Shown here piece by piece: positions 4,423 to 41,721 of a stretch of DNA of 64,000 nucleotides. The notes below the pieces were generated by a model, which saw only the letters and a list, made by a program, of their open reading frames with translations, made no database searches and was not told the origin of the DNA. Numbering within the stretch: the first letter of the stretch is position 1; the number at the start of each line of letters is the position of its first letter. The DNA comes from an uncultured Caldithrix sp. (GTDB lineage Bacteria > Calditrichota > Calditrichia > RBG-13-44-9). A program made the translations under genes and the position numbers. The DNA lies in assembly GCA_964461135.1 (NCBI GenBank), contig CAYWTB010000017.1:5459-69458 (forward strand), in the 5' to 3' direction.

Positions 4423-4447
4423 CGGCTGGTATGATAAATTTTAATCA

Positions 4448-4478
4448 AACCCCGGTATTTTTGATCCGGGGTTTTTTT
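4448..4478 (+). terminator. Rho-independent terminator after rpoN
   Basis: aaCCCCGGtatttttgatCCGGGGttttttt: a perfect 6-bp GC stem followed by a T7 run, 26 nt after the rpoN stop. Confidence 0.65.
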
Positions 4479-4607
4479 ATGGGTAACAGAATTAATCAAA
4501 TTATACCTGCATTTAAACAATAAAAGTAAATTTTAGGCTCAATTTGGCATCTTCCAGAATTTTATTTAAATTAGAGTTTATTTACAGAAAGAAAAAGCGA
4601 GCGACAA

Positions 4608-5150: not shown

Positions 5151-5173
5151 ACGGATGGAATTGGAGGGTTTTT

Positions 5174-6562: not shown

Positions 6563-6604
6563 CCGGATATGAACATGAATTCCGGATAAAAGCAGGAGGA
6601 TAAT

Positions 6605-7528: not shown

Positions 7529-7533
7529 TTACG

Positions 7534-8553: not shown

Positions 8554-8616
8554 AAAAAATCATAATTTCGGGTTATTTACTATCGTATTTAAGCATGAAC
8601 ATTAATCTGCCAGGGT

Positions 8617-9846: not shown

Positions 9847-9970
9847 TAATTTTGGATCATTGAAGATAGGAAATAACATAATAAAATGATGTGAAGGTTT
9901 AATTAATTGAAGTAGACTAGAATTGAATAAACAGCTTGACTAATTTTAAATAATATAATAAATTTTTAGT

Positions 9971-17392: not shown

Positions 17393-18652
17393 TTGGGGAG
17401 ACGTAAATTGAAAATATTTTATGTAAAAATATTTTTACTATTATTTTGCTTCAATATTATATTTGCACAAACCTTTCAACAAAAGAAGGACCAAACTAAT
17501 ACCCAACCTCAGCCACAACAAAAATTTGATATTGATCTCGAACAGCTGGAAAAATCAAGTCAACAGATAATTCCTCAACAACAATATCTGGAAACGGTGT
17601 TGGCGAAAGCCATTGATTCCACAAAATATATATTAGGTCCTGGTGATCAGATATTAATTAAAATATGGGGTCCTCTGGAAAATCAATTTCTTCTGGAAAT
17701 TACTCCGGAGGGATATCTTATCATTCCCACTGTTTCAGATTTAAAGGTATCAGGCTTGACTTTATTTCAGGGTAGTGAATTAGTCAAAAAGATGGTGAAT
17801 GATTTTTATAAGAATGTAAGTTCTTCGGTCCGCCTGGTAAGAATGCGTAAATTTCGTGTTTATATAGTTGGGGAAATCCAAAATCCCGGAACTTATTATG
17901 TTCGCTCAGCTGATCGAATTAGTGATGTTATTGAACTTGCCAATGGTTTAACAGAGTGGGCAGATGATACTCGAATTCAGGTGAAAAGTAGTATCGGTGA
18001 TTTAAATAGTATTAATATCAGTAAATTTTTCGTTTCGGGAAATCTGGATGAAAATCCTACCCTGAACGGAGGGGATATTATTTACATTCCACCCATTGAT
18101 TTGGAAAAAAATTATGTGGTGGTAGAAGGGAATGTTGGATCTGAGGGAATTTATCAGATCCAGCCGGGAGAAAATTTATATACCTTTATGACCCGTATAC
18201 GGGCCATCAATCGAAAATCGAATCTGAATAATGTTATATTGGTCAGAAACGGAGAAAAAGTGATATATGATTTGATAACAGAGGTATCGTTCGTGAAGAG
18301 GGAGGAATTGAAGTCAGGGGATCGTTTGATAATACCATCCAATCGCGATCGGGTATATGTTAAAGGTGAGGTGTATCAAGCTGGTCCTTATCCCTACATG
18401 GCCAATTTCGCCGCCCAGGATTATGCTGGTATGGCAGGTATGCTGGAATCAGCCCAGAGTGTCAACAATATTATTGTTATACGGAAGGTATCTGGAAAAG
18501 TAGAAAAGGGGGGATCAGTCATTGTGGATAAAGGAGATATCGTTGTTGTTCCACAACGAAGTCGGGAGAATACTAAAGATATTATGACTATCTTAACGCC
18601 AATTGTTAGTATCGGATTAAGCACATTTGCAATTATAAGGGCAACTAGATAG
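17393..18652 (+). CDS. wza: Polysaccharide export protein (Wza-like, Poly_export + SLBB)
   Basis: Signal peptide. Has a Poly_export motif ILGPGDQILIKIWG… and SLBB-like GEIQNPGTYYV, with repeated SLBB-like segments (KGEVYQAGPYPY). Confidence 0.8.
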   Translation: MGRRKLKIFYVKIFLLLFCFNIIFAQTFQQKKDQTNTQPQPQQKFDIDLEQLEKSSQQIIPQQQYLETVLAKAIDSTKYILGPGDQILIKIWGPLENQFLLEITPEGYLIIPTVSDLKVSGLTLFQGSELVKKMVNDFYKNVSSSVRLVRMRKFRVYIVGEIQNPGTYYVRSADRISDVIELANGLTEWADDTRIQVKSSIGDLNSINISKFFVSGNLDENPTLNGGDIIYIPPIDLEKNYVVVEGNVGSEGIYQIQPGENLYTFMTRIRAINRKSNLNNVILVRNGEKVIYDLITEVSFVKREELKSGDRLIIPSNRDRVYVKGEVYQAGPYPYMANFAAQDYAGMAGMLESAQSVNNIIVIRKVSGKVEKGGSVIVDKGDIVVVPQRSRENTKDIMTILTPIVSIGLSTFAIIRATR

Positions 18653-18675
18653 AAGAAATAAAAAAAATTATAATT

Positions 18676-19815
18676 ATGAAAAATCAAGAATTAACACCCA
18701 GTTTTCGTTTTATGAAATTGCTCTGGCAAAATCGTGTGTTTATCCTAGTTTTTAGTTTCAGTTTTTTTGTTTTATCAATTATATATAGCCTTTTGCTTCC
18801 TAAGTGGTATGAAGGAAGGGTGGTTTTCATAATAAATGAAGAAAAAAGTTATTTAGGATCGTTTTCTTCATCACTTCTAGGAAATGTTGGACTGCCATCA
18901 AATTTTCTTGGAGATTTTGCTAAACCTCTTTCAGAACAGTACATTAATTTTTTACAATCCCATTCAATTTTGGATAAAATTGATTCTATTTATAAACTTC
19001 AGGAAGCTTATGAAATAAAATATAGGAAAAGTTTTTATAGAAGAATATTATCTAATGCTAGATTCGTGGATAATAATGATAATTCAATAACTATCTATTT
19101 TTATTACAAAGAGGATCCTGATAAAGCTGCTTCAATTGCAAATTCATTTTTTATTGAATTAGAAAAATTAGTATCAAAATTACGATCAGAACGAAATGAA
19201 AAAATAAAAAATTTTCTTGAAAGAACTTATACAGAAACAATTGATAAGTTAGTTGATGCTGAAGAAAAAATGAAAAAATTTCAGTTAAATAATAAAGTTT
19301 ATTCTTTAGATGATCAAGTTAAGTTAGTAATTCAAAATATTTCAGAATTGGAAGCACAAAGAATTCAATTAGCCATTCAGAAAGAATACTTGGAATCATC
19401 TGGAGCAAAAAATACGGTAGAATATCAAGCACTGATTAATAAGATTATCATATTAAATAAATCAATCAACTCGCTTAAAACAAAAAGCGAATATATTGAT
19501 GTGCCTTTAGAGGATTTACCTTTAAAAGGACTCGAATATATAAGAATATTGAGAGAAATTAAAATTAGAGAAAAAATCTTGGAATTCGTAGTTCCACAAT
19601 TAGAAAATGCAAGGATGCAAGAATTCAGAATATCATCTACCCTTCAATTATTGGATTCCGCAGTTCCTCAAGACTATAAATCGAAACCCAAAAGAATAGT
19701 TATTGTTTTTGTGGTTACTTTTTTTGCCTTCACATTCTCAATTTTATTTTTACTAATAAAAGCGTTTATTAGAAATAACCGGCGTTCATTAACCCAAGTT
19801 TTTAATAAAGAATGA
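18676..19815 (+). CDS. wzz: Polysaccharide chain-length determinant (Wzz/PCP-family, no kinase domain)
   Basis: N-terminal TM after LLWQNRVFILVF…, a long coiled periplasmic region, and a C-terminal TM (PKRIVIVFVVTFFAFTFSILFLL). Confidence 0.65.
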   Translation: MKNQELTPSFRFMKLLWQNRVFILVFSFSFFVLSIIYSLLLPKWYEGRVVFIINEEKSYLGSFSSSLLGNVGLPSNFLGDFAKPLSEQYINFLQSHSILDKIDSIYKLQEAYEIKYRKSFYRRILSNARFVDNNDNSITIYFYYKEDPDKAASIANSFFIELEKLVSKLRSERNEKIKNFLERTYTETIDKLVDAEEKMKKFQLNNKVYSLDDQVKLVIQNISELEAQRIQLAIQKEYLESSGAKNTVEYQALINKIIILNKSINSLKTKSEYIDVPLEDLPLKGLEYIRILREIKIREKILEFVVPQLENARMQEFRISSTLQLLDSAVPQDYKSKPKRIVIVFVVTFFAFTFSILFLLIKAFIRNNRRSLTQVFNKE

Positions 19816-21101
19816 TTTACTTGAATGTTTCTCGTCAGGGGGCAAAGCTTTTTCCTTTAATACTCTTTATTATAATTTGGGTGTCTCAGGTATTTTTTTA
19901 TTTTTTAAATCCCTTTTATTATAAAGAAATAACTTTCTATACTTGGATTATTATTTTCATAGGTGTTTTTTCTTTTATTACTGGATATCTAACCTCATAT
20001 TTCTTCAAGTTTGATCGTCATTTGGTTATCAACAACTCAAACGATACTGTTAATAAATTAAATTTCCCAAGCTCAAGAATAAGAAATTTAATAATTCATA
20101 TTTCCATAATTGTTATATTTGCTATGTTTTTTGATGTAGTATTAATAATAAGTACGATTAAAAAATATAATCTCGATCCAACGAATATTTTTTGGTATAG
20201 GTTAATTTATTCCACTTTTGCACGTAATTTAACTCGCTGGAATTTTATTCACTCAATTTTGAACTATTTAATTACACTAAATTTAGTCTCAATAATTTTA
20301 TCAGCTATTTATTCCGCGATATATAAAGGCAAAATGTCTGTAACCATGTTACCGTTATTGCTTGCATTAACGTTCAGTATTATAACCCTGCAGCGATATC
20401 TTTTTACAAGTAGTTTAATTATATGGCTAATCAGTTTTTTCTTTGTTAGTTTCAATTTACCACTGTCTGAAAGAATAAAAACATTAAAGAGATTTGTCGA
20501 ATATATTGGCATTATGGTAATAATTATAGCTACTATCCTAATTCTAATAATAAGCATAAGAATTAATATAGATTTAGGAGGTGTTAAAACAGTTGAATTG
20601 ACAAAATACGTATTTAAAAGTATTTATACTTATTTTGTTGGAAACATTGTTGCTTTAGACAATTACTTACAGAGGGACATTTTGTACAAATATGGTGCAG
20701 AAATTTTTCAGAGTGTCTTCAAATGGCTCGGTAGACTTGGTTTAATAGAGTCAAAATCTATTTCAACACAATATTTAGAATTTACAGATATAGGAAATTA
20801 TACTGTAAATACTTATACATTTATTAGAAATTTCTATGAAGATTTTGGTGAAGCAAGCCTTGTAACATATGCTTATTTATGGGGCTTTATTACTTCTTAT
20901 GCCGTTGAAAAATTATTTCAGAAATTTTCCTTTGCACGTTTGTTTATTGCTAGTTATTTAGTCTTTGCTCTTTTTATTTCTTTTTTTAGTTTTGTACTTT
21001 TAAATATCTCAATGTTTTTTCTTCTAGTAATTTATTCTTGGATCATTGGAAAAATTCTTACCAATCAATATTTAAATAAACTATCAAATGAGTATCACTG
21101 A
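19812..21101 (+). CDS. Wzy-like repeat-unit polymerase / O-antigen-ligase-like polytopic membrane protein
   Basis: 429 aa, about 10-12 TM helices, low complexity. 4-nt ATGA overlap with wzz. Located between Wzz and Wzx. Assignment is by context and topology only. Confidence 0.45.
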   Translation: MIYLNVSRQGAKLFPLILFIIIWVSQVFFYFLNPFYYKEITFYTWIIIFIGVFSFITGYLTSYFFKFDRHLVINNSNDTVNKLNFPSSRIRNLIIHISIIVIFAMFFDVVLIISTIKKYNLDPTNIFWYRLIYSTFARNLTRWNFIHSILNYLITLNLVSIILSAIYSAIYKGKMSVTMLPLLLALTFSIITLQRYLFTSSLIIWLISFFFVSFNLPLSERIKTLKRFVEYIGIMVIIIATILILIISIRINIDLGGVKTVELTKYVFKSIYTYFVGNIVALDNYLQRDILYKYGAEIFQSVFKWLGRLGLIESKSISTQYLEFTDIGNYTVNTYTFIRNFYEDFGEASLVTYAYLWGFITSYAVEKLFQKFSFARLFIASYLVFALFISFFSFVLLNISMFFLLVIYSWIIGKILTNQYLNKLSNEYH

Positions 21102-22512
21102 ACACCAAATTAAATCTTTTCTCAAATTTACTTCAGTTAATATTTTAAGAAATGCTTTAGGTTTAATTAGATCTAAAGTAATTGCTATTTGGTACGGTGG
21201 TCTGGGTGTTGGGATATTGGGTCAATATGTATCATTCTTTAATCTGCAATCAAAGATTTTATTATTTGGAGCAACAGCTAGCATTATTAATTCTCATAAT
21301 AAGGCGATTAGAGAAAGCTGGAATAAACAGCTCGTTCTTTTATATCATTTATTAATAATTTTAGTAACAAACATTTTAGGTGGTTTATTCTTAATTTTAT
21401 TCTCCAATAAAATTTCAACCTTGATTTTTGATGGATTAGTTGATAACAATTTTGTTTTTTTAATGGTTTTAGTCGGATTAATCTACTCAGCTGGGATGTA
21501 TTTAGAATTATTGGTACAGGCTAGAAAAGAGTTTTCAAAATTATTTAAAGGACAAGTCTACTCTTCAATATTTGCAATTTTAACACTAATTCCGATAATT
21601 TTTATATTTGGCATTAAGGGTATTTTATATAATTTTATAATATTTTATTTAATAAGTTTTCTTTTTTTTTTAAGTACATCCGCACTTGATATTCATGAAC
21701 TTTCCAGAAATCACGTTCAATTAAATATTAAAATATTAAAATATATATTAAAGGTTTCTTTAATTGATATTGCTAGATCGATTTTAGTGATTGGTTCACT
21801 ATTAGTTGGGAGAATTTTCATAGTTAAAATAATTGGAATACAAAAAACAGGTTATTTACAATCCATTCTTAGTATTACCAATTATATAAATGTTCTATCA
21901 ATGGGTTTTATGATATATTATTTTCCAACAATAAGTTCAAAATTAAAAACAGATGATTTTTCAAATGAATTTAATTCTGGTTTTAAACTACTTATTTATT
22001 TTGTATTTCCTTTTATTATTTTAATTTATTTATTCCCTGATATCTTTATAAAATTATTATATACAAAAGAGTTCTTAATAGTAAAAAATTTTTTACCCAT
22101 ATTAATGATTAGTAAAGTGATAGAAATATACAATTATTTTTATGGTATAAATTTTTTAGGAACAAATAGATTAGGAAATTTTATTTTATTAGATGGTCTT
22201 AAATCAATTATTTTTCTTTTATTATTAGCAATTTTATTGTCTAAATTTCAAATAATAGGAATTGTATATTCTTTTCTTGGCGCTGAAATTACAGCCTTCT
22301 TATCTCTAAAAATAATCTTAAAAAAGATCACTCAACTTCAATTAAAAAGGGAAAATAATATCTTGTATTATAAAATTCTATTACTATTAATTTTATTAAA
22401 TTTCCTTGATATTAATATTTTCCTTAAAATTCTTATATCCTTATCGTATTCCATTTTGCTTCTCGATCTAAAAACTTATTTTGAATTAATTTCAATATTT
22501 AGAAAAAAATAA
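21088..22512 (+). CDS. wzx: Wzx flippase (MOP/polysaccharide biosynthesis protein family)
   Basis: 474 aa, about 12-14 TM helices. N-terminal KFTSVNILRNALGLIRSKVIAIWYGGLGVGILGQY is typical of Wzx. Confidence 0.7.
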   Translation: MSITEHQIKSFLKFTSVNILRNALGLIRSKVIAIWYGGLGVGILGQYVSFFNLQSKILLFGATASIINSHNKAIRESWNKQLVLLYHLLIILVTNILGGLFLILFSNKISTLIFDGLVDNNFVFLMVLVGLIYSAGMYLELLVQARKEFSKLFKGQVYSSIFAILTLIPIIFIFGIKGILYNFIIFYLISFLFFLSTSALDIHELSRNHVQLNIKILKYILKVSLIDIARSILVIGSLLVGRIFIVKIIGIQKTGYLQSILSITNYINVLSMGFMIYYFPTISSKLKTDDFSNEFNSGFKLLIYFVFPFIILIYLFPDIFIKLLYTKEFLIVKNFLPILMISKVIEIYNYFYGINFLGTNRLGNFILLDGLKSIIFLLLLAILLSKFQIIGIVYSFLGAEITAFLSLKIILKKITQLQLKRENNILYYKILLLLILLNFLDINIFLKILISLSYSILLLDLKTYFELISIFRKK

Positions 22513-22518
22513 GAATAA

Positions 22519-23682
22519 ATGAATATTCTACTTATCAGTTTTGAATTTCCCCCACAGCCTGGTGGCATAGGGACATATAGTTATCAGATTGCAAAAAATC
22601 TACATTATCTTAATAACAATATAACAGCTTTAGTTAATACAAATTTAATGTCTAGAGACGAGGTTGAAAAATTTGACAATTTCCAGGAATTCAACATTAT
22701 AAGATTTAAAAATTATAAGAATAAAGTTTTTAAAATTATACACAGAATATTCTTTTCATGCAAAGTCTTTGAATCTAAAAAATATGATTTAATTTTTATT
22801 ACTTATTCTCATGCTGGTATTATTGGAATAATTGGGAAATATTTATATAAAATTCCATACATTATGATGGGTCATGGTTCCGAATTTTTATATAAAAATA
22901 GATATTTGAATTTTTTTATTAGGTTATTTTTTAACTGTTCTGATTTAATTTTTGCAAATTCTAAATTCACAGCAGACTTAATGAGAAATAGAGGTATAAT
23001 TAATAAAAATTTGAAGGTTATTCCATTAGGAGCCGATGAAAAACTTTATGATAAAAATAGATATAATCCCGATTTGTTAAAGAAGAAATACGGTTTTGAG
23101 AAAAGACAAATCATTTTAACAGTGGGAAATCTATCGATAAGAAAGGGGCATAAGTATGTTATTGAGGCAGTACAGATCTTAAAAGATGATTTTCCAAATA
23201 TTCTTTATTTAATTATTGGGAGGGGAAAAGAAAGAGAATATTTAGAGAGCTTAATCGAAAAATATAATTTACATGATTATGTTAAAATAATTGGATTTGT
23301 ATCCACAGAATTGCTTCCAGAATATTATGCATTGTGCGACTTTTTCATTTTGAATAGTACTAAAGCACCAAATGGGGATGTTGAAGGTTTTGGCATTGTG
23401 CTTGTTGAAAGCGGTTTGATGGGTAAACCGGTAATTGGAACAAAGGGTTGTGGTATAGTTGAAATTATAGAACATAACAAAACTGGTTTATTAATAGAAA
23501 AGGATAGCATAAAAGATACCACTTCTGCTATTAGGGTCTTATTAAAAGATGTAAAACTCAGAAAATCATTTGGCCAAAATTTCTATTTAAAGGCTATAAA
23601 AACACTGACATGGAAAGCTGTGGCTCATAACACAAACAATGAAATTAATTCATATTTTGCTAAATATTCCACAAAAAATTAG
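22519..23682 (+). CDS. Glycosyltransferase family 4 (GT-B)
   Basis: MNILLISFEFPPQPGGIGTY… N-terminus. C-terminal EGFGIVLVESGLMGKPVIGT motif (glycos_transf_1). Confidence 0.82.
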   Translation: MNILLISFEFPPQPGGIGTYSYQIAKNLHYLNNNITALVNTNLMSRDEVEKFDNFQEFNIIRFKNYKNKVFKIIHRIFFSCKVFESKKYDLIFITYSHAGIIGIIGKYLYKIPYIMMGHGSEFLYKNRYLNFFIRLFFNCSDLIFANSKFTADLMRNRGIINKNLKVIPLGADEKLYDKNRYNPDLLKKKYGFEKRQIILTVGNLSIRKGHKYVIEAVQILKDDFPNILYLIIGRGKEREYLESLIEKYNLHDYVKIIGFVSTELLPEYYALCDFFILNSTKAPNGDVEGFGIVLVESGLMGKPVIGTKGCGIVEIIEHNKTGLLIEKDSIKDTTSAIRVLLKDVKLRKSFGQNFYLKAIKTLTWKAVAHNTNNEINSYFAKYSTKN

Positions 23683-23689
23683 TAGTGCA

Positions 23690-25945
23690 ATGCCCTTCAA
23701 AATTTTATTTTTTGCTAATACTTCATTCATCGGTGGCGCCGAACGAAATATTTTAGATCTTGCGAATAAATTAAATGAAAAAGGTCATGATATATCTATT
23801 GCAAGCTTAGAAAGAGGCGGTCCTTTATTAAAAATGGCAAAGATTAATGGAATCAGGACATTTGATCCTGATTTCAAATATTATTTTAGCCTTTCTTATA
23901 TAAAGAATATATATTCTTTTTTAAAATTAAATAATTTTGACTTTATTTTTATATATGGTCTAAAATTAAAAGTTATTCTAATACCTTTAGCCTTTTATCA
24001 TAGAAAACTGGTAATTATTTCTATGATCTTAGGACTTGATGTTTGGAAAAAGAATGTTCGTATAATTGTAGAAAAAATATTGATACCTTTCACCTCATTT
24101 TGGATCTCAAACTCCATTGCAGCAAAAGAAAATTCCATTAGAAGGGAAGGTACACCCCAGGATCTTATTTATGTAATTTACAACGGATTACCTATAAATT
24201 GTGGTATTAAAAATAAAACAAAAAAAAAGGAAAAGAGAAAAGATTTTAAAATCATAACTCTAGCAAATATTCAAAAAAACAAGGGGCATTACTTCTTTTT
24301 GAAAGTTATAAAAAAGGTAATAGAAATTGATCCGAATATAACTTTTAATTTTATTGGTAAAGATTTTACAAATGGTGAGATTCAGAAAGAAATTAAACGG
24401 TTTCAATTAGAAAATAATGTTTCTTTATCCGGATTTATTTTTGATGTGCGATCTTATATACATAATTATGATCTAATGGTTTTACCTTCATTTTCTGAAA
24501 GTCTTCCAACTTCTATTATTGAATGTATGCTTGAAGGAGTACCTGTACTTGCAACAAGAGTAGGTGGTATTCCTGAAATTATTAAAAATGAAAAAACAGG
24601 ATGGCTTGTAGAAGCAGGTGATGAAGAATCCTTTATAAAGAAAATTATTACCATAAAATACAACGAGAAAAAAAGAAATGAAATTTCAAATAATGCTTAT
24701 TTATATGCAATTAATAAATTTAATATTGACAAAATATCTACTGATTACGAAAGATTATTGCAATTATATATTCCAAAAAAGGACGCGTCCAAGAACAAAT
24801 TCAGAATTATGAGGGTTCAATCCCGAATTGTAGTAGGTGGACCGGCCCTGCACACCATTCTGCTCTCCCGGGCTTTGAATAATGATCGCTTCCAGACGGT
24901 GCTGGTGGGTGGTGCTAACAAATCTTCAGAAAAAAGCCTAGTAAAGGCTGCCAGGAATCAAAATATCAGATGTTTTATAATTCCTGAAATGGCCAGGGAA
25001 ATTCATTTCTATGATGACATTATTTCTTTTATTAAACTTTATCGGCTAATCAAAAGAGTGAAACCTGATATTTTTCACTCCCATACCTCGAAAGGTGGGG
25101 CCATTGGACGGTTGGCTGCCTATTTGGCCGGGGTTCCGATAATTTTTCATACATTCCATGGCCATATATTTGAAGGTTATTTCGGAAGAACGAAGAGCAT
25201 TGTCTTTATATGGCTTGAAAAATTACTGGCCAGAATATCAACCAATATTATTGTGATCAGTGAAAGTCAAAAAAAAGACATTGTAAAAAAATACAGAATA
25301 AATTCTAACCACAAGACCAAATTGATCCCGCTGGGATTCGAATGGTCAGGTTTCTTTCACGAAGACAAAAATGTGAATTTCCGTAAACAATTCAATTTAC
25401 CGGAAAATAAGTTCCTGATTGGCAGTATCGGACGGATAGTACCCATCAAAGATCATGCACTATTTATTAAAATTGCCCACCAATTAATTCAAAAGCATCC
25501 ATCAAAATTTCATTTTGTCATTATCGGTGATGGTGAACTTCGTGAAGAAATGGAAACAGACCTGGAGTTAAAAGGTATCCGAAATTATTTTACTTTCACG
25601 GGATGGTGGAATACTAATGTAAATATCTATCAAAACCTCGATCTTCTGCTGCTTACTTCCCAAAATGAAGGTACACCTGTTGCTGTAATAGAAGCCCTGG
25701 CCTCCGGAACGCCGGTAATCGCCTCAGCTGTAGGAGGTGTGCTGGACGTCATGTCCAAATATTGTCGGGAATTTGCTGTTGCCGACAGAGATCCAGCAAA
25801 ATATGTAGTGATGATCGAAAAACTTTATAATTCCAGGGTCACTGTGCCTGCAGAGACCAGTCGGTTTATCAGAAATTATTACAGTTCCGAGAGACTGATC
25901 CGCGATATGAAAGAGCTGTACCTCCAAAGAATTAACGACTCCTGA
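23690..25945 (+). CDS. Two-domain GT4-GT4 fusion glycosyltransferase
   Basis: Continuous 768-codon ORF (23639..25945; probable ATG at 23690). Residues 1 to about 385 form a complete GT4 (…SESLPTSIIECMLEGVPVLATRVGGIPEI…). Residues from about 391 (MRVQSRIVVGGPALH…) form a second complete GT4 (…EGTPVAVIEALASGTPVIAS…). Base composition switches from AT-rich to GC-normal at about 24780. Confidence 0.75.
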   Translation: MPFKILFFANTSFIGGAERNILDLANKLNEKGHDISIASLERGGPLLKMAKINGIRTFDPDFKYYFSLSYIKNIYSFLKLNNFDFIFIYGLKLKVILIPLAFYHRKLVIISMILGLDVWKKNVRIIVEKILIPFTSFWISNSIAAKENSIRREGTPQDLIYVIYNGLPINCGIKNKTKKKEKRKDFKIITLANIQKNKGHYFFLKVIKKVIEIDPNITFNFIGKDFTNGEIQKEIKRFQLENNVSLSGFIFDVRSYIHNYDLMVLPSFSESLPTSIIECMLEGVPVLATRVGGIPEIIKNEKTGWLVEAGDEESFIKKIITIKYNEKKRNEISNNAYLYAINKFNIDKISTDYERLLQLYIPKKDASKNKFRIMRVQSRIVVGGPALHTILLSRALNNDRFQTVLVGGANKSSEKSLVKAARNQNIRCFIIPEMAREIHFYDDIISFIKLYRLIKRVKPDIFHSHTSKGGAIGRLAAYLAGVPIIFHTFHGHIFEGYFGRTKSIVFIWLEKLLARISTNIIVISESQKKDIVKKYRINSNHKTKLIPLGFEWSGFFHEDKNVNFRKQFNLPENKFLIGSIGRIVPIKDHALFIKIAHQLIQKHPSKFHFVIIGDGELREEMETDLELKGIRNYFTFTGWWNTNVNIYQNLDLLLLTSQNEGTPVAVIEALASGTPVIASAVGGVLDVMSKYCREFAVADRDPAKYVVMIEKLYNSRVTVPAETSRFIRNYYSSERLIRDMKELYLQRINDS

Positions 25946-26058
25946 TATGAAAATCCACAAATCAATCTCATAAATTACTGAATTTTAATCCATTAATTTT
26001 TAACCGATTTGAATTTTTTTTAGACTAAAAGATTTTATGTAAAAATTGCGAGAAAAGT

Positions 26059-27948
26059 ATGTGTGGTATCAATGGAATATTATCCCAAAAAAGTATTAAT
26101 CACAAAGAAATTCTGCTTATGAATCAAAAAATTAATCATCGTGGCCCGGATGATGAAGGGACCTTCAAACACCAAAACATATTACTGGGTTCACGACGAT
26201 TATCTATCATCGATTTACAGGATGGTCATCAACCGATTTTCAATGAGGATAAAACTCTGGTTATTGTATTCAACGGAGAGATATATAATTATAGGGATTT
26301 ACGCAAAAATTTAATTGATAAAGGTCACCATTTTAAAACGCATTCGGATACGGAGGTTATTCTCCACCTGTATGAAGAAAAAGGAGCAGCCTGTCTGCAT
26401 AAATTGAATGGAATGTTTGCTTTTGCTATTTATGATATCAGAAATAAAGAATTGTTCCTGGCCAGAGACCGTCTGGGCAAAAAACCATTGTTTTACTGGA
26501 AGGATCAGGACCAATTTGTATTTAGTTCAGAATTAAAAGCCATTCTTCATGCCTTCCCTCTCAAGCGGTCTATCTCTGTTGAAGCACTTGAACTCTATTT
26601 CGCATTGACCTTCATACCTGCTCCCTTCACAATCTTTGAGGACATCTTTAAATTAGAAGCCGGCCATTACATGAAAATAAGTGCTGATCTCCAATATGAT
26701 ATTAGTCAATACTGGAAGATTGATGGCGACGATTCCGAATCCTCTAACTCTTTAAATTTGGGAAACCATAAGAAAAAAATCATAGAATTACTCTCTGATG
26801 CGGTTGAATTGAGGATGATATCAGATGTGCCGTTAGGAGCGTTTTTAAGCGGAGGAATAGATTCTTCGATTATTGTGGGATTAATGAGTGAAATCTCCGG
26901 AAAGAAAATTCAGACCTTTACTATCGGAAATAAAGAAAAGTCATACGATGAATCAGCAAAAGCTGAATTTGTGGCAAAATATTTTAAAACGGATCATCAT
27001 ACTTTTATCATACAAGATGATGATTATTTATCAATTTTAGATCGGGCGATAAATGATTTTGATGAACCTTTTGCAGATTCTTCAGCTCTGCCAACCTACC
27101 TTGTATCAGAATTTGCCCGCCAGCAGGTAAAAGTAATATTAACCGGGGACGGAGGAGATGAAGTTTTTGCAGGCTATAACCGCTACCTTGTATTTAAGTA
27201 TCTTGAAAAATATATGCTGCTACCCTTGATAGTAAGGAACTACATTATCAGACCAATATTCAATAATTTGCCGGTTTCCAGTAAATATAGAAAATTTGTT
27301 AAAGTTAAAAAGATTGTTAATAATGAAGGAAAAAATATTTTTGATCAATATCATGCCATGCAGCGTCTGGGATTTTCGGAAAGAGACCTGGCTGATATTT
27401 TGTTGGATAATAATAAATCAGATTACACAAGGTCCTTCGTATATGAAAAATATAATATGATTAATTATGCTTCAAACCTGAATAAGATTTTACAAACTGA
27501 TCTTACGATAGGCCTGGAAGGTGATATGCTGGTAAAGGTAGACAGGATGTCCATGCTGAATTCTCTGGAAGCCAGATGTCCTTTTTTGGATTACCGTTTA
27601 GTGGAATATTCTTTTAAAATTCCTGCCGAATTAAAATTATACCATGGTCAATTAAAATACTTGTTGAAAGAGTGTTTCAGAGAAAAAATCCCGCCTGGGA
27701 TTTTAGCTGCGCCTAAACAGGGTTTTGAAATACCAATCGGAAATTTTATCAGCAATCAATTACAGCCTAAAATCCAAAATTTTTTAAAGTCCGATCTCTT
27801 AAATACTTTAAGATTGGTTGATTTAAATAAAATAACAAAAATCAATCAGAAACATCTGTTAGGAATTGATAAATCTTTTCAGCTATGGACCTTTTTTGTT
27901 TTCGCTAATTGGGTGGAAAATTTCCAGAATTTTATCGAAATAAAATAA
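26059..27948 (+). CDS. asnB: Asparagine synthase (glutamine-hydrolysing)-family amidotransferase (AsnB/WbpS-like)
   Basis: MCGI N-terminal nucleophile Cys2. GATase-II domain and SGGIDSS PP-loop ATP pyrophosphatase motif. 629 aa. Confidence 0.88.
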   Translation: MCGINGILSQKSINHKEILLMNQKINHRGPDDEGTFKHQNILLGSRRLSIIDLQDGHQPIFNEDKTLVIVFNGEIYNYRDLRKNLIDKGHHFKTHSDTEVILHLYEEKGAACLHKLNGMFAFAIYDIRNKELFLARDRLGKKPLFYWKDQDQFVFSSELKAILHAFPLKRSISVEALELYFALTFIPAPFTIFEDIFKLEAGHYMKISADLQYDISQYWKIDGDDSESSNSLNLGNHKKKIIELLSDAVELRMISDVPLGAFLSGGIDSSIIVGLMSEISGKKIQTFTIGNKEKSYDESAKAEFVAKYFKTDHHTFIIQDDDYLSILDRAINDFDEPFADSSALPTYLVSEFARQQVKVILTGDGGDEVFAGYNRYLVFKYLEKYMLLPLIVRNYIIRPIFNNLPVSSKYRKFVKVKKIVNNEGKNIFDQYHAMQRLGFSERDLADILLDNNKSDYTRSFVYEKYNMINYASNLNKILQTDLTIGLEGDMLVKVDRMSMLNSLEARCPFLDYRLVEYSFKIPAELKLYHGQLKYLLKECFREKIPPGILAAPKQGFEIPIGNFISNQLQPKIQNFLKSDLLNTLRLVDLNKITKINQKHLLGIDKSFQLWTFFVFANWVENFQNFIEIK

Positions 27949-28243
27949 TATAGCATGCAATTATAATCTTTGTACTGTTGTCTCATTGTTCACAAATAAT
28001 ATGTCGCAGAATACTCTAATAAAATTATCTGGAAAATTTTAATTTTGAGCAGTACTGAAATAACCGGATATAAAACGAAAACTTATCTTTCAATAAATTA
28101 AGAATCCGTTCTGATTATGATTTATTCTCTGATTTTTAGTTTGGGTTATTTTTTAAAAAAACCGTTATCATTAAAATAATTATCACTTTTCGCAAGATAT
28201 ATCTGGTCATAAATTACACTCCGTACTTAAACATCTATACAAA

Positions 28244-29359
28244 ATGCATATACCTTTTGTTGATCTTAAACAACAATACCTTTCAATTCAGCGGGAAATA
28301 AAGCAGGAACTGGAAAACGTCTGCCAGAATGCCAGCTTCGTACTGGGGCCTTTTGTCAGGACTTTTGAGGAAAATTTTTCAAAATTTATAGGGATTAAAC
28401 ATACCATCGGCCTGAATTCCGGCACCTCCGCGGTTCAGTTGGCGGTGCAATCTTTCATTTCACCCGGTGATGAAGTAATTACGGTCCCCAATACGTTTAT
28501 CGCCACTACCGAAGCCATTACCGCCGCCGGGGGCAAAGTAGTTTTTGTGGATATTGAAGGAGAATCCTTCAATATGGATCCGGCAAAACTGGAATCTGCG
28601 ATTACACCCAGAACGAAAGTCATTGTCCCGGTCCATCTCTTCGGTCAACCGGCCGACATGGATCCGATCCTGGAAATCGCCCACAAACATAAAGTATTTG
28701 TGGTTGAAGATGCTGCCCAGGCCCATGGTGCGGAATACAATGGGAGAAAAGCAGGAAGTCTTGGTACGGCCGCGGCATTTTCGTTTTATCCCGGAAAAAA
28801 TCTGGGTGCCTATGGCGAGGGAGGCGCCATTACAACCAATTCAGATGATATTGCCGGCTTCGTTAAAATGTACCGAGACCATGGCTCCCGGGAAAAATAT
28901 ATACACGAGTTTGAAGGGCATAATATGCGCATGGAAGGATTTCAGGGTGCGATCCTGTCCGTTAAGCTGAAATATTTGGAAAAATGGAATAATGCCCGTC
29001 GCAATCATGCCAGGCTGTATAATAAATTATTAAGAGATGATCCTTCCGTAATCACGCCCTTAGAAATGAGTTATGCAAAGCATGTGTATCATCTGTATGT
29101 AATCCGGGTGCCAGACCGCGAAAAATTGCAGCAGTACCTGAATGAAAATGGAATTAGTTCCGGATTCCATTATAAATATCCCCTGCATTTACAGAAAGCT
29201 TATCAGTACCTGGGGCATATGCAAGGTGATTTCCCGGTTACGGAAAAGGTGATGAATGAAATTATCTCCTTACCCATGTACCCGGAATTAACTGAAGATC
29301 AGATTGAGTATGTTGTGCATCATGTAAAAAAATTTCATAAAATCAACAATTGCTCCTGA
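28244..29359 (+). CDS. DegT/DnrJ/EryC1/StrS-family PLP-dependent sugar aminotransferase (WbpE-like)
   Basis: MHIPFVDLKQQY…GTSAVQLAV… is the typical family N-terminus. Has a conserved Lys region (SFYPGKNLGAYGEGG). Confidence 0.88.
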   Translation: MHIPFVDLKQQYLSIQREIKQELENVCQNASFVLGPFVRTFEENFSKFIGIKHTIGLNSGTSAVQLAVQSFISPGDEVITVPNTFIATTEAITAAGGKVVFVDIEGESFNMDPAKLESAITPRTKVIVPVHLFGQPADMDPILEIAHKHKVFVVEDAAQAHGAEYNGRKAGSLGTAAAFSFYPGKNLGAYGEGGAITTNSDDIAGFVKMYRDHGSREKYIHEFEGHNMRMEGFQGAILSVKLKYLEKWNNARRNHARLYNKLLRDDPSVITPLEMSYAKHVYHLYVIRVPDREKLQQYLNENGISSGFHYKYPLHLQKAYQYLGHMQGDFPVTEKVMNEIISLPMYPELTEDQIEYVVHHVKKFHKINNCS

Positions 29360-29383
29360 CGATTTAAATTAAGAGGCTTTTAC

Positions 29384-30391
29384 ATGATAAACCTTGGTGT
29401 AATTGGGGTAGGGTATTGGGGACCTAATATTATTCGGAATGCCGTATTAAATAAACGATTTAAGATGAGTTGCTGCGCGGATTCAAAACCGGAAAGGCTA
29501 GATTATATTAGCGCTCTATATCCCACAATTAAAACTTCACCAAATTATAAAGAGATTATCGACGATTCGTCCATTGATGCGGTGGCGATATGTACCCCGG
29601 TTTTCACCCATTTTGAGATTGCTTCGGCCGTTCTGCAGGCGGGAAAGCATATTCTAATTGAAAAACCTATGACAGGAACCTCAGCGGAAGCGCAGCAGTT
29701 GCTTGAATTAGCTGAGAAAAATAAATTAAAGATATTGGTGGATCATACCTTTCTGTTTACCGGAGCAGTACGCAAGATTAAAGAAACTATTAAAAGCGGA
29801 GAAATCGGGGATATTTATTACTTCGATTCGGTACGAGTGAACCTGGGACTATTCCAGCATGATGTCAATGTGGTATGGGATCTGGCACCACATGATATAG
29901 CTGTCATGGATCATCTCATTGACAGGAAGGCGGAAAGTATTGTGGCAACAGGTTCGGATCACCTCGGCAATGGCCTTGAGGATGTTGCCTTTGTTACCGT
30001 TTTTTATCCGGATAATATCATTGCCCACATTCATGTGAATTGGTTATCACCGGTTAAGATCAGACAGACCCAGATCAGCGGAACCAAAAAAATGATTGTG
30101 TGGGATGACAATTCCCCCAGTGAAAAGGTTAAAATTTATGATAAAGGAATAGAAGTCATACAGACTGCCGACCAGGTTTATAATACGCTTGTGCAATACC
30201 GCACGGGGGATATGTACTGTCCGAAAATCCCGCAGAGTGAAGCTCTGGCGGTTGAGATGGATCATTTTGCCGATTGTATTGAGAAGAACATTACACCAAT
30301 ATCTGATGGATATTCCGGATGGCGGGTGGTGCAAATACTGGAATCATCCGAGAAATCGATCAAACACAGAGGCAGGGAAATCAGATTATGA
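29384..30391 (+). CDS. Gfo/Idh/MocA-family sugar-nucleotide dehydrogenase (WbpB/GnnA-like)
   Basis: Rossmann motif GVIGVGYWG, the EKP motif (ILIEKPMT) and 335 aa. Sits immediately between the aminotransferase and the acetyltransferase. Confidence 0.85.
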   Translation: MINLGVIGVGYWGPNIIRNAVLNKRFKMSCCADSKPERLDYISALYPTIKTSPNYKEIIDDSSIDAVAICTPVFTHFEIASAVLQAGKHILIEKPMTGTSAEAQQLLELAEKNKLKILVDHTFLFTGAVRKIKETIKSGEIGDIYYFDSVRVNLGLFQHDVNVVWDLAPHDIAVMDHLIDRKAESIVATGSDHLGNGLEDVAFVTVFYPDNIIAHIHVNWLSPVKIRQTQISGTKKMIVWDDNSPSEKVKIYDKGIEVIQTADQVYNTLVQYRTGDMYCPKIPQSEALAVEMDHFADCIEKNITPISDGYSGWRVVQILESSEKSIKHRGREIRL

Positions 30392-30855
30392 AATTTATCA
30401 GCATCAGCGATGACGTTGAACTCGGTCAGGGTGTTAAAATTTATAATTTTGTGAACCTGTATGGATGTAAAATAGGGGACAATACCAAGATCGGAACTTT
30501 TGTGGAAATACAGAAGGGGGCCACCGTGGGTAAAAATTGCAAAATATCCAGCCATACCTTCATCTGTGAGGGGGTTCATATTGAAGATAACTGCTTTATC
30601 GGGCACAATGTGACTTTTATAAATGATAAATACCCCCGCTCCACCAATGAAGATGGCCGCATGCAAACGGAGGAGGATTGGCAGTGTGTGCCAACCTTTG
30701 TGCGACGGGGAGCCAGCATCGGCAGTAGTGCCACCATACTCTGTGGTGTAACCATCGGGGAGAATGCCATTGTGGGTGCGGGAGCAGTCGTAACCAAAGA
30801 TGTTCCCCCTAATATCACCGTGACAGGAGTACCCGCCAGGACTATTAAAGGCTAG
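30388..30855 (+). CDS. Hexapeptide-repeat (left-handed beta-helix) sugar N-acetyltransferase (WbpD-like)
   Basis: ATG at 30388 overlaps the upstream stop (ATGA). Has repeated [LIV]G-x4 hexapeptides (IGDNTKIGTFVEIQKGATVGKNCKI…). 155 aa. Confidence 0.8.
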   Translation: MKFISISDDVELGQGVKIYNFVNLYGCKIGDNTKIGTFVEIQKGATVGKNCKISSHTFICEGVHIEDNCFIGHNVTFINDKYPRSTNEDGRMQTEEDWQCVPTFVRRGASIGSSATILCGVTIGENAIVGAGAVVTKDVPPNITVTGVPARTIKG

Positions 30856-30927
30856 CTTTCGGTTATGTATTTAATTCACCTGCCCGTCACTTCGGTCAAT
30901 TCAGTTTCGATGGCAGTTTCACATTAA

Positions 30928-30956
30928 AGGGGAGATCCAAATTATCCCCTTTTTTT
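30928..30956 (+). terminator. Possible rho-independent terminator
   Basis: AGGGGAgatccaaattaTCCCCT followed by TTTTTT. Confidence 0.5.
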
Positions 30957-31128
30957 CATGAATGAACAATTAACACATATCTGATGGTCTTTATTTCGAG
31001 TAATACAATTTTCGGATAGTGGTCCAACCATATCACGGAAAATAAGGACATTCTTCTTGTTTGATTCATAATCCCTCTTTAAATTTAACTTTCGTAAATA
31101 TAAGATTTGACTGAATTTCACCGTATCA

Positions 31129-33663
31129 ATGAATTTTTTTATTATTTTTCTTTCAGCATTCATTTTATCTCTGGTCGCCGTATATGCAATAAAACGGATC
31201 GCCCTGAGGTTAAAAATTGGTTCTTTACCTTCGCCTCGCAAACTTCACCGGGGATTCAAACCTCTGCTGGGAGGGGTTGGTTTCGCTATTGCCATATTAT
31301 TGTCAATTTTGATTGGACAATTGATTGGCCTCCTTCCCCGGGAAGTCTGGATTCAGTATAAATATTTCTGGACGGGTTTTTTTATTGTGTTGCTTACCGG
31401 GATTGTGGATGATGTCGGTGGTATTTCCTCCAGAATAAAGTTTTTAGGGGAAGCCACCGGGGCCATCCTGTTAATATTAGGTGGCTGCAAGATTCAATCC
31501 TTCAGCGGTTCCATCGGTGAGGTTTTAAATCTGGGAATATTTTCCATACCATTCACCTTCCTCTGGATTATTTTTATTATTAACGCTATCAACTTATTGG
31601 ATGGTCTGGACGGCCTGGCTGCAGGTGTTGGTTTCCTTATTACCACCGGTATGATTATCATCGGAATAATGATAAATGGCATTTTTTTGGTGGTCCTGGG
31701 ATTGGGGCTTGCAGGAGCTTTACTGGGTTTCCTGAAATATAATTATCATCCTGCCTCTATTTTCATGGGAGAGGCGGGAAGTCTGCAGCTGGGTTACCTG
31801 CTGGCTTTCTTTTCCATTGAGAATCTCAAGGTAGCCGGAAGTCACCAAATCTATTTTATGGTGGCACTGGTTCTTTTCTGTGTACCCATGACGGACACAC
31901 TGGTGTCTTTTCTCAGAAGACTGGGACAGGGCCATAGTCCCTTTCTCGCAGATAAGGAGCATATACATCACCGCCTGCTGAAATTAGGTCTCTCCCATCT
32001 TCAGACCGTCTGGTTAATGTATTTTCTGACCTTTTTTTATGTTACTGCCGGTGTTTTAATTTTTTATTTTAAGGGATTCCTGGGATTAATTTTGTTCGGA
32101 ATTGCCTTCTTTCTGGCAGTTTTCTGGATTTACAGATTGGGTTATGTGGAGACCAGGTTTTCCTGGCAGAAATTTGCACATCAGTTCCAGCAAATGGTAA
32201 TCGTTAAAGCCCGAGCTCCACTTCACTTTAACCGAATCTGGCATCGTCTCATCCTGATTATCAGTGACGTTCTCACCGTAAACTTTGCCTTATACTCCAT
32301 GCACTGGTTTAAATTTGAATCAGGTGTTTTTGCCCAGTCCACCTATCGCCCCATTTCTGACTATTTCTTCAGCCCTGTTTTTCTTTTCCTTTTGCTGGCC
32401 TGGATATTTCTGTTTTTTGTTAATAATCTGTATCAACTGGACTGGGATATCTCCCGTTTCGAAAAAACCTGGCGGGTATCTAAGGTAATTACCTTCGGAA
32501 TCATACTTCTGGGTTTATTAACTATTGATTTCCGACGGCTCATCAGTGAATCCCAACTTATATCGCTTCTGGGTTACTGGATAATGATGATAATTTTTGT
32601 AAATACCGGTCGTTTGATAATAATTGGGATTGAAAAGAGGCTTCGTATTTTCGAATATTCTCCCCGCAAAACTCTGATCATTGGTCTAACGGATCTAGCA
32701 AAAAAAGTTTACAGGGATATTCAATATAATCCTCATCTAATCTTTGATGTAATTGGATTCGTAGCTAAAAAATCGAAGGAAAATACATACCTGGGATTGC
32801 CGGTCCTGGGCAGTTATAGGGATTTGCCGGAAATAATTCACCGCTATAAAATTCAGGAGGTAATTATTGCCTTGCCGGAGAGTTCCAGTCAGGATTTTAT
32901 CAATATCCTGGGTTTGTGTGAGCCGCAAGGAGTAAAAATTAAAACCTTGCCGGGGCGGCAGGAATTTTTATCTTCACAACGGCTAAATCTGGTTAGCCAC
33001 AGTTTTATCCAACTTTTCACGGAAAGTATGGTGCTGTGGCAATGGGTTATTAAAAGACTGGTTGACCTGCTGCTTTCCCTGATTTTTGTGATTCTGCTTT
33101 CTCCGTTCCTCCTGGCGGTGAGTATAATTCTGGTTTATTATTTCAGGAAATCTGTACTGGTAAAGGTACCGGTGATGGGAGAGAATGGTATTCCCTTTAA
33201 CATGTATGTTTTTCGTCTTACCGGGAAAAATTATGATTATCAGGATAATGCTATTTATCTGGGCACTGATCCCCCGGCTGCGGACGCTGCAGGATTTATC
33301 TTGTTTTTATTCAGGTACAGATTTTATAAATTACCTCAACTGCTGAATGTTTTTCTCGGTGATATGAGTATTGTAGGACCGCGGCCCGAACCGATCGAAT
33401 GGTATCAGGAATTCAGCCCTCTGGTTAAATTTCTACACCGCAGGATTATGGTCAGACCCGGTCTCACCGGTCTGGCCCAGGTAAAGTATCATTATGAACT
33501 TTCCCAGAAAAAATTACAGGAATGGGCGAGATTTGACATGTATTACACTGAAAATTTATCTCTGCGGATGGACATGGGGATACTTATACGAACTATTCTG
33601 ATGATTTTTGTCAAACCTTATCAGAATTCAAAAAAAGAAAAGGTGCGGATCCCGGGGCTTTAA
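31129..33663 (+). CDS. Fusion protein: N-terminal WecA/MraY-family polyprenyl-phosphate N-acetylhexosamine-1-P transferase + C-terminal WbaP-type PGT scaffold with degenerate active site
   Basis: Residues 1 to about 345 carry the PNPT motifs IVDDVGG, NAINLLDGLDGLAAG, PASIFMGEAGSLQLGYLLA and KEHIHHRLL. Residues about 350-600 hold TM helices and a CoA-binding-like Rossmann segment (LIIGLTDLAKKVY…VIIALPE). Residues about 610-844 form a Bac_transf domain (GDMSIVGPRPEP, RPGLTGLAQV). In that domain the residues preceding LPQL are YK instead of the catalytic DE. Confidence 0.75.
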   Translation: MNFFIIFLSAFILSLVAVYAIKRIALRLKIGSLPSPRKLHRGFKPLLGGVGFAIAILLSILIGQLIGLLPREVWIQYKYFWTGFFIVLLTGIVDDVGGISSRIKFLGEATGAILLILGGCKIQSFSGSIGEVLNLGIFSIPFTFLWIIFIINAINLLDGLDGLAAGVGFLITTGMIIIGIMINGIFLVVLGLGLAGALLGFLKYNYHPASIFMGEAGSLQLGYLLAFFSIENLKVAGSHQIYFMVALVLFCVPMTDTLVSFLRRLGQGHSPFLADKEHIHHRLLKLGLSHLQTVWLMYFLTFFYVTAGVLIFYFKGFLGLILFGIAFFLAVFWIYRLGYVETRFSWQKFAHQFQQMVIVKARAPLHFNRIWHRLILIISDVLTVNFALYSMHWFKFESGVFAQSTYRPISDYFFSPVFLFLLLAWIFLFFVNNLYQLDWDISRFEKTWRVSKVITFGIILLGLLTIDFRRLISESQLISLLGYWIMMIIFVNTGRLIIIGIEKRLRIFEYSPRKTLIIGLTDLAKKVYRDIQYNPHLIFDVIGFVAKKSKENTYLGLPVLGSYRDLPEIIHRYKIQEVIIALPESSSQDFINILGLCEPQGVKIKTLPGRQEFLSSQRLNLVSHSFIQLFTESMVLWQWVIKRLVDLLLSLIFVILLSPFLLAVSIILVYYFRKSVLVKVPVMGENGIPFNMYVFRLTGKNYDYQDNAIYLGTDPPAADAAGFILFLFRYRFYKLPQLLNVFLGDMSIVGPRPEPIEWYQEFSPLVKFLHRRIMVRPGLTGLAQVKYHYELSQKKLQEWARFDMYYTENLSLRMDMGILIRTILMIFVKPYQNSKKEKVRIPGL

Positions 33664-33672
33664 TTCTTCTTA

Positions 33673-35808: not shown

Positions 35809-35834
35809 AATTACTATTTTCAAGGCCTCTCTTC

Positions 35835-41715: not shown

Positions 41716-41721
41716 AAAGAT

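Follow-up and report, generated by a model that had tools for sequence, protein, structure and literature searches.

What does a bacterial membrane protein gain from two initiating transferases of unrelated chemistry in one chain when one of them has lost its catalytic residues? The question is raised by a gene in a 64,000-nucleotide stretch of DNA from an uncultured Caldithrix sp. (contig CAYWTB010000017.1; the whole stretch is called the window below), whose product joins a WecA/MraY-type polytopic polyprenyl-phosphate N-acetylhexosamine-1-phosphate transferase (PNPT) to a complete WbaP-type scaffold, i.e. that of the large monotopic phosphoglycosyl transferases (PGTs), the PGT class of greatest abundance. 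The PGT module of this fusion lacks the catalytic Asp-Glu dyad and many other active-site residues, is conserved across the family almost as well as the PNPT, and is accompanied by a second, more degenerate scaffold of the same type on the glycosyltransferase encoded next to it. The reading that we favour, and consider rather likely to be right, is an active N-acetylhexosamine (HexNAc)-1-phosphate primer carrying a pseudo-PGT as an assembly or regulatory scaffold, probably paired with the scaffold of that neighbouring family 2 glycosyltransferase (GT2).

The gene is a single uninterrupted open reading frame (ORF) with an ATG start and no internal stop (Table 1). Pfam places Glycos_transf_4 (PF00953) at residues 80-230 (121.5 bits, E 4e-35, gathering score 27), CoA_binding_3 (PF13727) at residues 435-608 (47.6 bits) and Bac_transf (PF02397) at residues 642-827 (profile positions 1-178 of 179, 128.5 bits, E 2.7e-37). 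Each score lies far over its gathering cut-off, and the domain order in the chain is the one that a preliminary description of this DNA, made from the sequence alone, had read from short motifs, all of which (DDxxG, NAINLLDGLDGLA, HIHH, VFRLT, YK-LPQ, GPRPE, RPGLTGLAQ) are found where it had put them. The large-PGT models TIGR03025 and TIGR03023 of NCBIfam span residues 379-829 end to end, with scores below the cut-offs of the collection (TIGR03025, 251.6 versus 295.55; TIGR03023, 223.8 versus 410.75; TIGR03022, 140.4 versus 403).

An AlphaFold2 (AF2) model of the fusion, built with 41 sequences, has a mean predicted local distance difference test score (pLDDT) of 79.4 and contains ~11 helices in residues 1-353, the transmembrane helices of the scaffold at 367-396, 409-431, 443-464 and 474-505, a Rossmann-like domain at 513-606 and a helix-break-helix at 636-656/658-672 that leads into the PGT fold. 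The re-entrant membrane helix, whose fate had been left to structure prediction, is thus retained in the model, and pLDDT drops below 50 in the linker (346-363) and in residues 612-624 of this monomer. Foldseek against the PDB returned WbaP of S. enterica as the top match (8t53, E 1.6e-14), many MraY chains (TM-score by target 0.70-0.79, E ~1e-10 to 1e-11) and PglC (TM-score 0.80, 31% identity), in agreement with Pfam and the model that one chain unites an intact PNPT with the whole WbaP-type scaffold. Judging from helix parity in the model (11 + 4) and the known topologies of WecA and WbaP, the PNPT and PGT catalytic faces would both be cytoplasmic.

The preliminary description had held that the second module is apparently non-catalytic, since Tyr-Lys occupies the position of the Asp-Glu dyad and VFRLT that of the KFRTM-like segment upstream. 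Both substitutions are borne out by alignment with solved structures: in HMMER alignments, 'sLDELPQLF' of PglC (8g1n/8e37, E 4e-22) and of WbaP (9s7s and others) falls on 'rFYKLPQLL' of the query, and 'YKFKTM' of PglC falls on 'YVFRLT', which places Val at the equivalent of PglC K59. In an alignment of 120 fusion sequences, the two residues of the dyad site are Tyr (114 sequences) and Lys (111 sequences), and Asp or Glu occurs in none. The dyad is DE in all 72 DE-type relatives, i.e. in the fused proteins P0267 and P0276 and in 70 standalone large PGTs, which were fetched with the C-terminal 480 aa of the fusion and compared with 115 family members. A dyad shifted in register was also considered and ruled out, there being no acidic pair in columns 726-740 of the 120 homologues and the conserved acids outside the dyad (E754, D803, E808, D815) occurring equally in active PGTs.

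The damage goes further than first described. Two yardsticks were used, namely 50 positions at least 95% invariant in 62 standalone DE-type large PGTs and 29 positions invariant in 29 standalone PNPTs; the window protein retains 28/29 of the PNPT positions but only 31/50 of the PGT positions, with 19 lost, and by these counts is not a true double initiator. Changed or relaxed relative to active large PGTs are K669, S672, G674, Q680, R682, K694, M698, D717/P718/R719/T721, R728, D733 and E734. This list covers K694 (PglC K59, Lys in 100% of DE-type large PGTs), which has become V/L, R728 (PglC R88), which has become Y/F, and the motifs QxRxG and DPRxT. Kept are K642, R643, D646, P659, P736, N740, G744, S747, GPRPE, R772, PGxTGxAQ, D803, Y806, E808, S811 and D815, and a further set (Q638, W639, Y733, K734, R771, R776, R821) is invariant in the fusion family only. 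With the Asp nucleophile and other PGT invariants lost, the PGT half is, as far as sequence can tell, unable to use the covalent Asp-phosphosugar mechanism, and we judge the PNPT half by the same measure to be catalytically intact. That Tyr-Lys and several basic residues are so strictly conserved suggests a remaining ligand contact in the former active site, with the phosphate or pyrophosphate of undecaprenyl phosphate (Und-P) or an undecaprenyl-pyrophosphate (Und-PP)-sugar, or a uridine nucleotide, as candidates.

This combination is not peculiar to one genome. A search of 5.8 billion proteins for homologues, as had been proposed, listed more than 120 proteins that share the three Pfam domains of the fusion, at least 115 of them at least 780 aa long and 36-74% identical to it. 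The architecture occupies ~20 clusters at 50% identity, and where an origin is named it is mostly Calditrichota, i.e. metagenome-assembled genomes (MAGs) of Calditrichota or KSB1, or Caldithrix abyssi; P0001 is identical to the window protein. Bac_transf is full length (profile positions 1-191) in eight more fusion loci. The pseudo-PGT domain is conserved nearly as well as the PNPT domain, with a mean pairwise identity of 44% versus 48% and with 19% of columns (37) versus 22% at least 90% conserved; the linker (residues 346-366) has 24% identity and no conserved column. Residues D94, D95, N152, N155, D158, G159, D161, G162, H278, H280 and H281 of the PNPT are invariant in the 41-sequence alignment, as are R336, G338 and E341 of a junction motif, RLGYxE, just upstream of the linker, and GPRPE and RxRPGxTGxAQ are practically invariant among the 120 sequences. 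One further protein, P0336, a standalone YK module, lies on a contig fragment of just 1.9 kb and is uninformative.

When 1.84 billion cluster representatives were scanned with HMMER, the family widened and could be sorted into four states. Both sites are intact in P0334 (Ignavibacteriota, MBI3194419.1, locus L087), P0339 and P0340, which keep 29/29 PNPT and 49/50 PGT positions, score 218-230 bits with Bac_transf and are candidates for true double initiators. The Calditrichota family of the window combines an intact PNPT (28-29/29) with the Tyr-Lys PGT (27-31/50), and a related set, including a Zixibacteria protein, combines an intact PNPT (25-29/29) with a still more degenerate PGT (19-28/50) that has EK, NK, QK or gaps at the dyad. 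The reciprocal state, a degenerate PNPT (8-14/29) on a fully intact PGT (47/50; Bac_transf 224-234 bits), is found in P0276 and P0267 from Marinimicrobia and in P0343; here, INAINLLDGLDGLA has decayed to SAFAMKIYEEIKGLS and HIHH to YIHD, and PF00953 reaches just 23-34 bits. In P0276 and P0267, which lie on Marinimicrobia-type contigs (L083-L086), DE and KFRSM are present in the PGT and PF00953 scores 23-29 bits. P0276 is colinear with window residues 129-829 in BLASTP (E 2e-82), straight through the junction 'YRLGY', which argues for one ancestral fusion, and the RLGYxE motif also occurs in the Marinimicrobia fusions. A rough neighbour-joining tree, computed from the scaffold part with 100 bootstraps, unites the standalone large PGTs in one clade (72%), groups the both-intact P0339 with the dead-PNPT clade (100%) and places the YK proteins with some of the more degenerate ones (91%). 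Taken as a whole, the window fusion would descend from an older 'double-initiator' fusion in the Fibrobacterota-Chlorobiota-Bacteroidota (FCB) group that elsewhere has stayed intact or decayed the other way.

A role for the dead module is suggested by the gene that follows, whose ORF begins 10 nt past the stop codon of the fusion. Its product consists of a GT2 domain, four transmembrane helices, a CoA_binding_3-type domain of unknown function (DUF), a re-entrant helix and, of Bac_transf, only the C-terminal half (profile positions 94-177), with 'WS' or nothing at the dyad site and GAPL in place of GPRP. Its scaffold and the one in the fusion are paralogues (23% identity, E 2e-12), and the acidic motifs of the GT2 domain are invariant in 39 homologues. 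The AF2 model of this partner (pLDDT 76.6) finds WbaP 8t53 as its top Foldseek match (E 4.2e-13), followed by GT-A fold enzymes. Both monomer models contain a low-confidence segment at the position of the WbaP hairpin (fusion 612-624, partner 551-558), and the hairpin of WbaP itself is also misplaced in monomer predictions (PMC10942596).

The pairing is conserved. Among PNPT-active loci with downstream sequence, the partner accompanies the fusion in 11 of 12: it lies immediately downstream in the window, L001, L002, L003, L004, L006, L007 and L008, directly after the more degenerate fusions of L090 (with a 4-nt overlap) and L091, and, as a GT2-CoA_binding_3-Bac_transf gene, two genes downstream of the both-intact fusion of L087, with L089 as the locus in which it is absent. 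At least 31 of the listed fusion proteins come from contigs identical in length to that of a protein of the partner family, with which they apparently share the contig. In L090 and L091, the pair lies outside any large polysaccharide cluster, so that the two genes behave as a self-contained module. Genes for a UDP-GlcNAc 2-epimerase and an NAD-dependent epimerase/dehydratase stand immediately upstream of the otherwise isolated pair of L091 (5828-8001), which hints at a HexNAc-ManNAc-type linkage unit. The association with the partner may even be older than the PNPT fusion, as in L011, an Ignavibacteriae MAG, a standalone DE-type large PGT (3710-5383) is followed 2 kb downstream by a GT2-pseudo-scaffold gene (7324-9315), possibly a pre-fusion arrangement. 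As to whether the pair could be read as one protein, the two ORFs of the window share a frame and are split within 33601-33720 by a stop and three codons (…IPGL*FFLMAILKG…); read-through was rejected as unlikely because the genes of L001 and L090 overlap by 4 nt in different frames.

These observations fit the mechanism that we favour. The PNPT half would catalyse the reaction Und-P + UDP-HexNAc -> Und-PP-HexNAc + UMP (UDP and UMP being uridine di- and monophosphate). The PGT half has lost the Asp nucleophile, the Glu, the counterparts of K59 and R88 and the active site's entire N-terminal conserved belt. It has kept the re-entrant helix, the four-helix bundle, the C-terminal half of the fold and the DUF that putatively binds uridine nucleotides, each under purifying selection, and may serve as a membrane-anchored dimerisation or assembly module that possibly senses UMP or UDP. 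WbaP is a homodimer held together by a swapped DUF hairpin and the transmembrane bundle, and its DUF binds UMP/UDP, which modulates activity (PMC10942596). In a similar manner, the pseudo-PGT would pair with the paralogous scaffold of the presumably co-transcribed GT2, and Und-PP-HexNAc would be handed directly to this enzyme for addition of the second sugar. A scaffolding, dimerisation or channelling role, which the preliminary description had raised for the dead module, is therefore plausible, its best support being the degenerate WbaP-like scaffold of the adjacent GT2 and the conservation of the pair. More tentatively, and with rather more doubt than belief, the idea may be extended: the large-PGT scaffold would be a portable, catalysis-free module, the scaffolds of the Calditrichota primer and of the second-step GT2 would heterodimerise as in the WbaP dimer into a priming complex dedicated to channelling Und-PP-HexNAc, and reciprocal pseudoenzymes would have evolved from a dual-initiator ancestor that is live at both sites in Ignavibacteriota, dead at the PGT site in Calditrichota and Zixibacteria, and dead at the PNPT site in Marinimicrobia.

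Several observations weigh against the favoured mechanism. TIGR02380, the WecA model, covers residues 7-340 with 118 bits against a cut-off of 326.05; the PNPT is thus WecA-like by sequence without being an orthologue of E. coli WecA under this model, and its sugar is not assignable. In L002, a PglC-like small PGT gene and PglD-, PglE- and PglF-like genes (5675-9906) stand directly upstream of the fusion/partner pair; that cluster has its own active primer, so that the fusion need not prime the adjacent Wzy cluster. No GT2 partner was found near the both-intact P0340, nor near the Marinimicrobia dead-PNPT fusions, and the scaffold therefore does not always need one. Finally, strict Tyr-Lys together with the family-specific Q638, W639, R771, R776 and R821 exceeds what a purely structural scaffold would seem to need and may reflect ligand binding or new chemistry.

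The alternative that fares best, though we hold it to be unlikely, draws on some of the same observations and confines regulation to the chain itself: the pseudo-PGT and DUF would homodimerise, sense UMP, a UDP-sugar or Und-P and throttle the fused PNPT as feedback on scarce Und-P, and the gene pairing would reflect consecutive pathway steps only, with no physical coupling to the GT2. Binding of UMP/UDP by the WbaP DUF and the inhibition of WbaP by UMP (PMC10942596) speak for such a switch, as do the retained GPRPE and RPGxTGxAQ motifs and the fusions of Marinimicrobia and P0340 that do without a partner. So do proteins composed of a PNPT, a four-helix bundle and a CoA_binding_3 DUF with no PGT domain, which are numerous in other phyla (KSB1, Aminicenantales, Fibrobacterales and others; examples are found at L053, L069 and L072 and in P0346, P0356, P0365, P0370 and P0415) and indicate that a PNPT can profit from fusion to just the accessory module. 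What regulation in cis leaves unexplained is why the GT2 should carry a degenerate WbaP-like scaffold of its own and why the two genes should be adjacent in 11/12 loci, sometimes with a 4-nt overlap.

Considerably less probable is a new enzyme with Tyr-Lys as its catalytic centre, whose candidate reactions are metal-independent phosphosugar transfer via a phosphotyrosyl intermediate and the modification or hydrolysis of Und-PP-linked intermediates. The conservation of Y733 (95%) and K734 (92%), the family-specific invariant basic residues R771, R776 and R821 and the retention of pocket-forming C-terminal motifs would suit it. Yet thirteen other positions of the active-site belt, invariant in active PGTs, have gained no new conserved residue; they now vary, with hydrophobic residues predominating, or are gapped. 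Related fusions have EK, NK, QK or nothing at the dyad, which looks like decay rather than a new catalytic design; we also know of no precedent in the PGT superfamily.

More improbable still is that the PGT half is a recently inactivated, functionless remnant nearing loss. The missing catalytic residues and the existence of PNPT proteins that end after the DUF could be cited in its favour, but retention of the full-length domain in at least 115 homologues whose identity goes down to 36%, with conservation nearly equal to that of the active PNPT and 37 columns at least 90% conserved, contradicts it. An artefact of assembly or sequencing that fused two genes near residue 345-365, an objection that the preliminary description had itself placed at 345-360 and to which only the poorly conserved linker lends colour, can be dismissed as next to impossible, because the same continuous ORF recurs in assemblies that were made independently (NCBI, JGI, ENA and Logan), some of its contigs being of Mb scale, with the fusion and its junction in at least 115 homologues and RLGYxE invariant.

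With regard to known systems, the N-terminal 345 aa of the fusion resemble WecA, TagO and WbpL (PF00953, MraY superfamily) in having DDxxG, NxxNxxDGxDGL, HIHH, ~11 transmembrane helices and the MraY fold, but the 500-aa C-terminal large-PGT module is known from none of the characterised PNPTs. The C-terminal 480 aa, in turn, comprise the whole architecture of WbaP, WcaJ and CpsE (four transmembrane helices, PF13727 and PF02397), with the K-R...S-P helix, GPRPE and PGxTGxAQ, and differ from these enzymes in the Tyr-Lys dyad, the loss of the K59/R88 equivalents and of the DPRxT belt, and a TIGR03025 score below the cut-off. The partner shares with the Bi-PGTs, in which a glycosyltransferase (GT) or sugar-modifying domain is fused to a monotopic PGT (PMC11626204, PMC10942596), a GT2 domain N-terminal to a large-PGT-type module; its PGT part is, however, heavily degenerate, making it a GT2 with a pseudo-PGT scaffold rather than a fusion of two enzymes. 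The membrane-anchored, PglF-like UDP-sugar dehydratases (PMC10942596) provide a precedent for the four-helix and DUF module on enzymes other than an active PGT. Unlike the fusion, which keeps the full PGT fold in an inactive form, these dehydratases have no PGT fold.

The preliminary description had also taken the architecture to be undescribed, and this stands only in part. O'Toole, Imperiali and Allen reportedly described, in PNAS in 2021, unexpected fusions of monotopic PGTs with members of the polytopic PGT superfamily, seen in a sequence-similarity network of the monotopic enzymes, so that the bare fusion is probably not new; P0334, P0339 and P0340 presumably belong to that class. The window branch would share with those fusions the combination of PF00953 and a monotopic PGT and would differ in that its monotopic half is a conserved pseudoenzyme, and it is this Tyr-Lys branch that is apparently new. 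A literature search on inactive or pseudoenzyme monotopic PGTs found nothing relevant. To our knowledge, and within the literature searched, the family-wide Tyr-Lys pseudoenzyme, the reciprocal dead-PNPT branch and the conserved GT2-pseudo-PGT partner are all undescribed.

According to the WbaP structure paper (PMC10942596), it is still unclear what the accessory domains of large monotopic PGTs do. The fusion family constitutes a natural separation of function in which PGT chemistry has been removed and the whole scaffold kept over hundreds of millions of years' divergence, attached both to a PNPT of unrelated chemistry and to the next glycosyltransferase, with the dead-PNPT/live-PGT and both-live branches as built-in controls. 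If the scaffold hetero-oligomerises or senses UMP, it would show how the first two steps of membrane glycan assembly are physically organised and also how scarce undecaprenyl phosphate is managed. Experiments look feasible because Caldithrix abyssi, which is cultured, has a member of the partner-gene family (P0229), and a homologue of the fusion (P0100, from a MAG) is labelled C. abyssi.

Table 1. Positions of the fusion gene, its domains and motifs, and the downstream partner gene in the window
Feature	Coordinates	Strand	Basis
Whole fusion gene: PNPT, four-helix transmembrane bundle, DUF and pseudo-PGT; 844 aa	31129..33663	+	ORF, Pfam, homologues
PNPT (WecA/MraY-type polytopic PGT) domain, residues 1-345, ~11 transmembrane helices	31129..32163	+	PF00953, Foldseek, AF2
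DDVGG (D94 D95), cytoplasmic Asp pair of PNPTs (Mg/catalytic)	31408..31422	+	family-invariant
NAINLLDGLDGLA (N152, N155, D158, G159, D161, G162), PNPT signature loop	31582..31620	+	invariant columns
HIHH (H278, H280, H281), WecA-type motif	31960..31971	+	invariant columns
Junction and linker, residues 346-366	32164..32226	+	low model confidence, poorly conserved
Four-helix transmembrane bundle of the large-PGT scaffold, residues 367-505	32227..32643	+	AF2, TIGR03025, Foldseek WbaP 8t53
Rossmann-like DUF (CoA_binding_3 / WbaP uridine-nucleotide-binding domain), residues 506-610	32644..32958	+	PF13727
Putative counterpart of the dimer-swapped beta-hairpin of WbaP, residues 611-635	32959..33033	+	presumed equivalence
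Pseudo-PGT domain (Bac_transf fold), residues 636-830	33034..33618	+	PF02397, PglC TM-score 0.80
Re-entrant membrane helix keeping K642-R643, D646 and S658-P659	33034..33144	+	alignment, AF2 helix-break-helix
VFRLT where K-F-R/K-(S/T)-M is expected; PglC K59 equivalent is Val	33208..33222	+	alignment
Tyr733-Lys734 at the site of the catalytic Asp-Glu dyad (YK-LPQ, 33325-33339)	33325..33330	+	alignment
GPRPE, PGT motif kept	33376..33390	+	
RPGLTGLAQ, PGT motif kept	33454..33480	+	
Partner: GT2 (GT-A) with a second, more degenerate WbaP-like scaffold; 711 aa	33673..35808	+	Pfam, AF2, Foldseek

The pair stands at the 3' side of a Wzx/Wzy-type polysaccharide cluster on the same strand (17393..30855, +; Pfam), which encodes a Wza-like exporter, Wzz (18676-19815), two membrane ORFs, a GT4, a double GT4, an AsnB-like amidotransferase, a DegT aminotransferase, a GFO/IDH oxidoreductase and a hexapeptide acetyltransferase. 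The two membrane ORFs (19812-21101 and 21088-22512) have no Pfam matches and occupy the positions expected of Wzy and Wzx. Their region, including Wzz, has a GC content of 25-31% (18000-24000) against ~40% elsewhere and is probably a laterally exchanged, serotype-specific part of the cluster. The double GT4 (23639-25945, +) is a 768-aa protein with two complete Glycos_transf_1 modules in tandem. In Marinimicrobia, the dead-PNPT fusions likewise stand at the 3' end of a cluster analogous to this one (epimerase, Wza, Wzz, Wzy, Wzx, sulfotransferase, GT, fusion).

A search of all ORFs of at least 120 aa in the window with hidden Markov models for another canonical PGT gave only the fusion and its neighbour, and a promoter and terminator scan of 30700-36000 returned nothing interpretable over shuffled background. 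Genes for a GT9, a GT2 and a GT4 follow downstream on the opposite strand. Further along (39433-42993, +), a gene pair that resembles MrfA/MrfB-like repair genes encodes a DEAD-box helicase, whose C-terminus bears an MrfA Zn-binding domain, and after it a TPR-repeat protein of the RNase-H superfamily.

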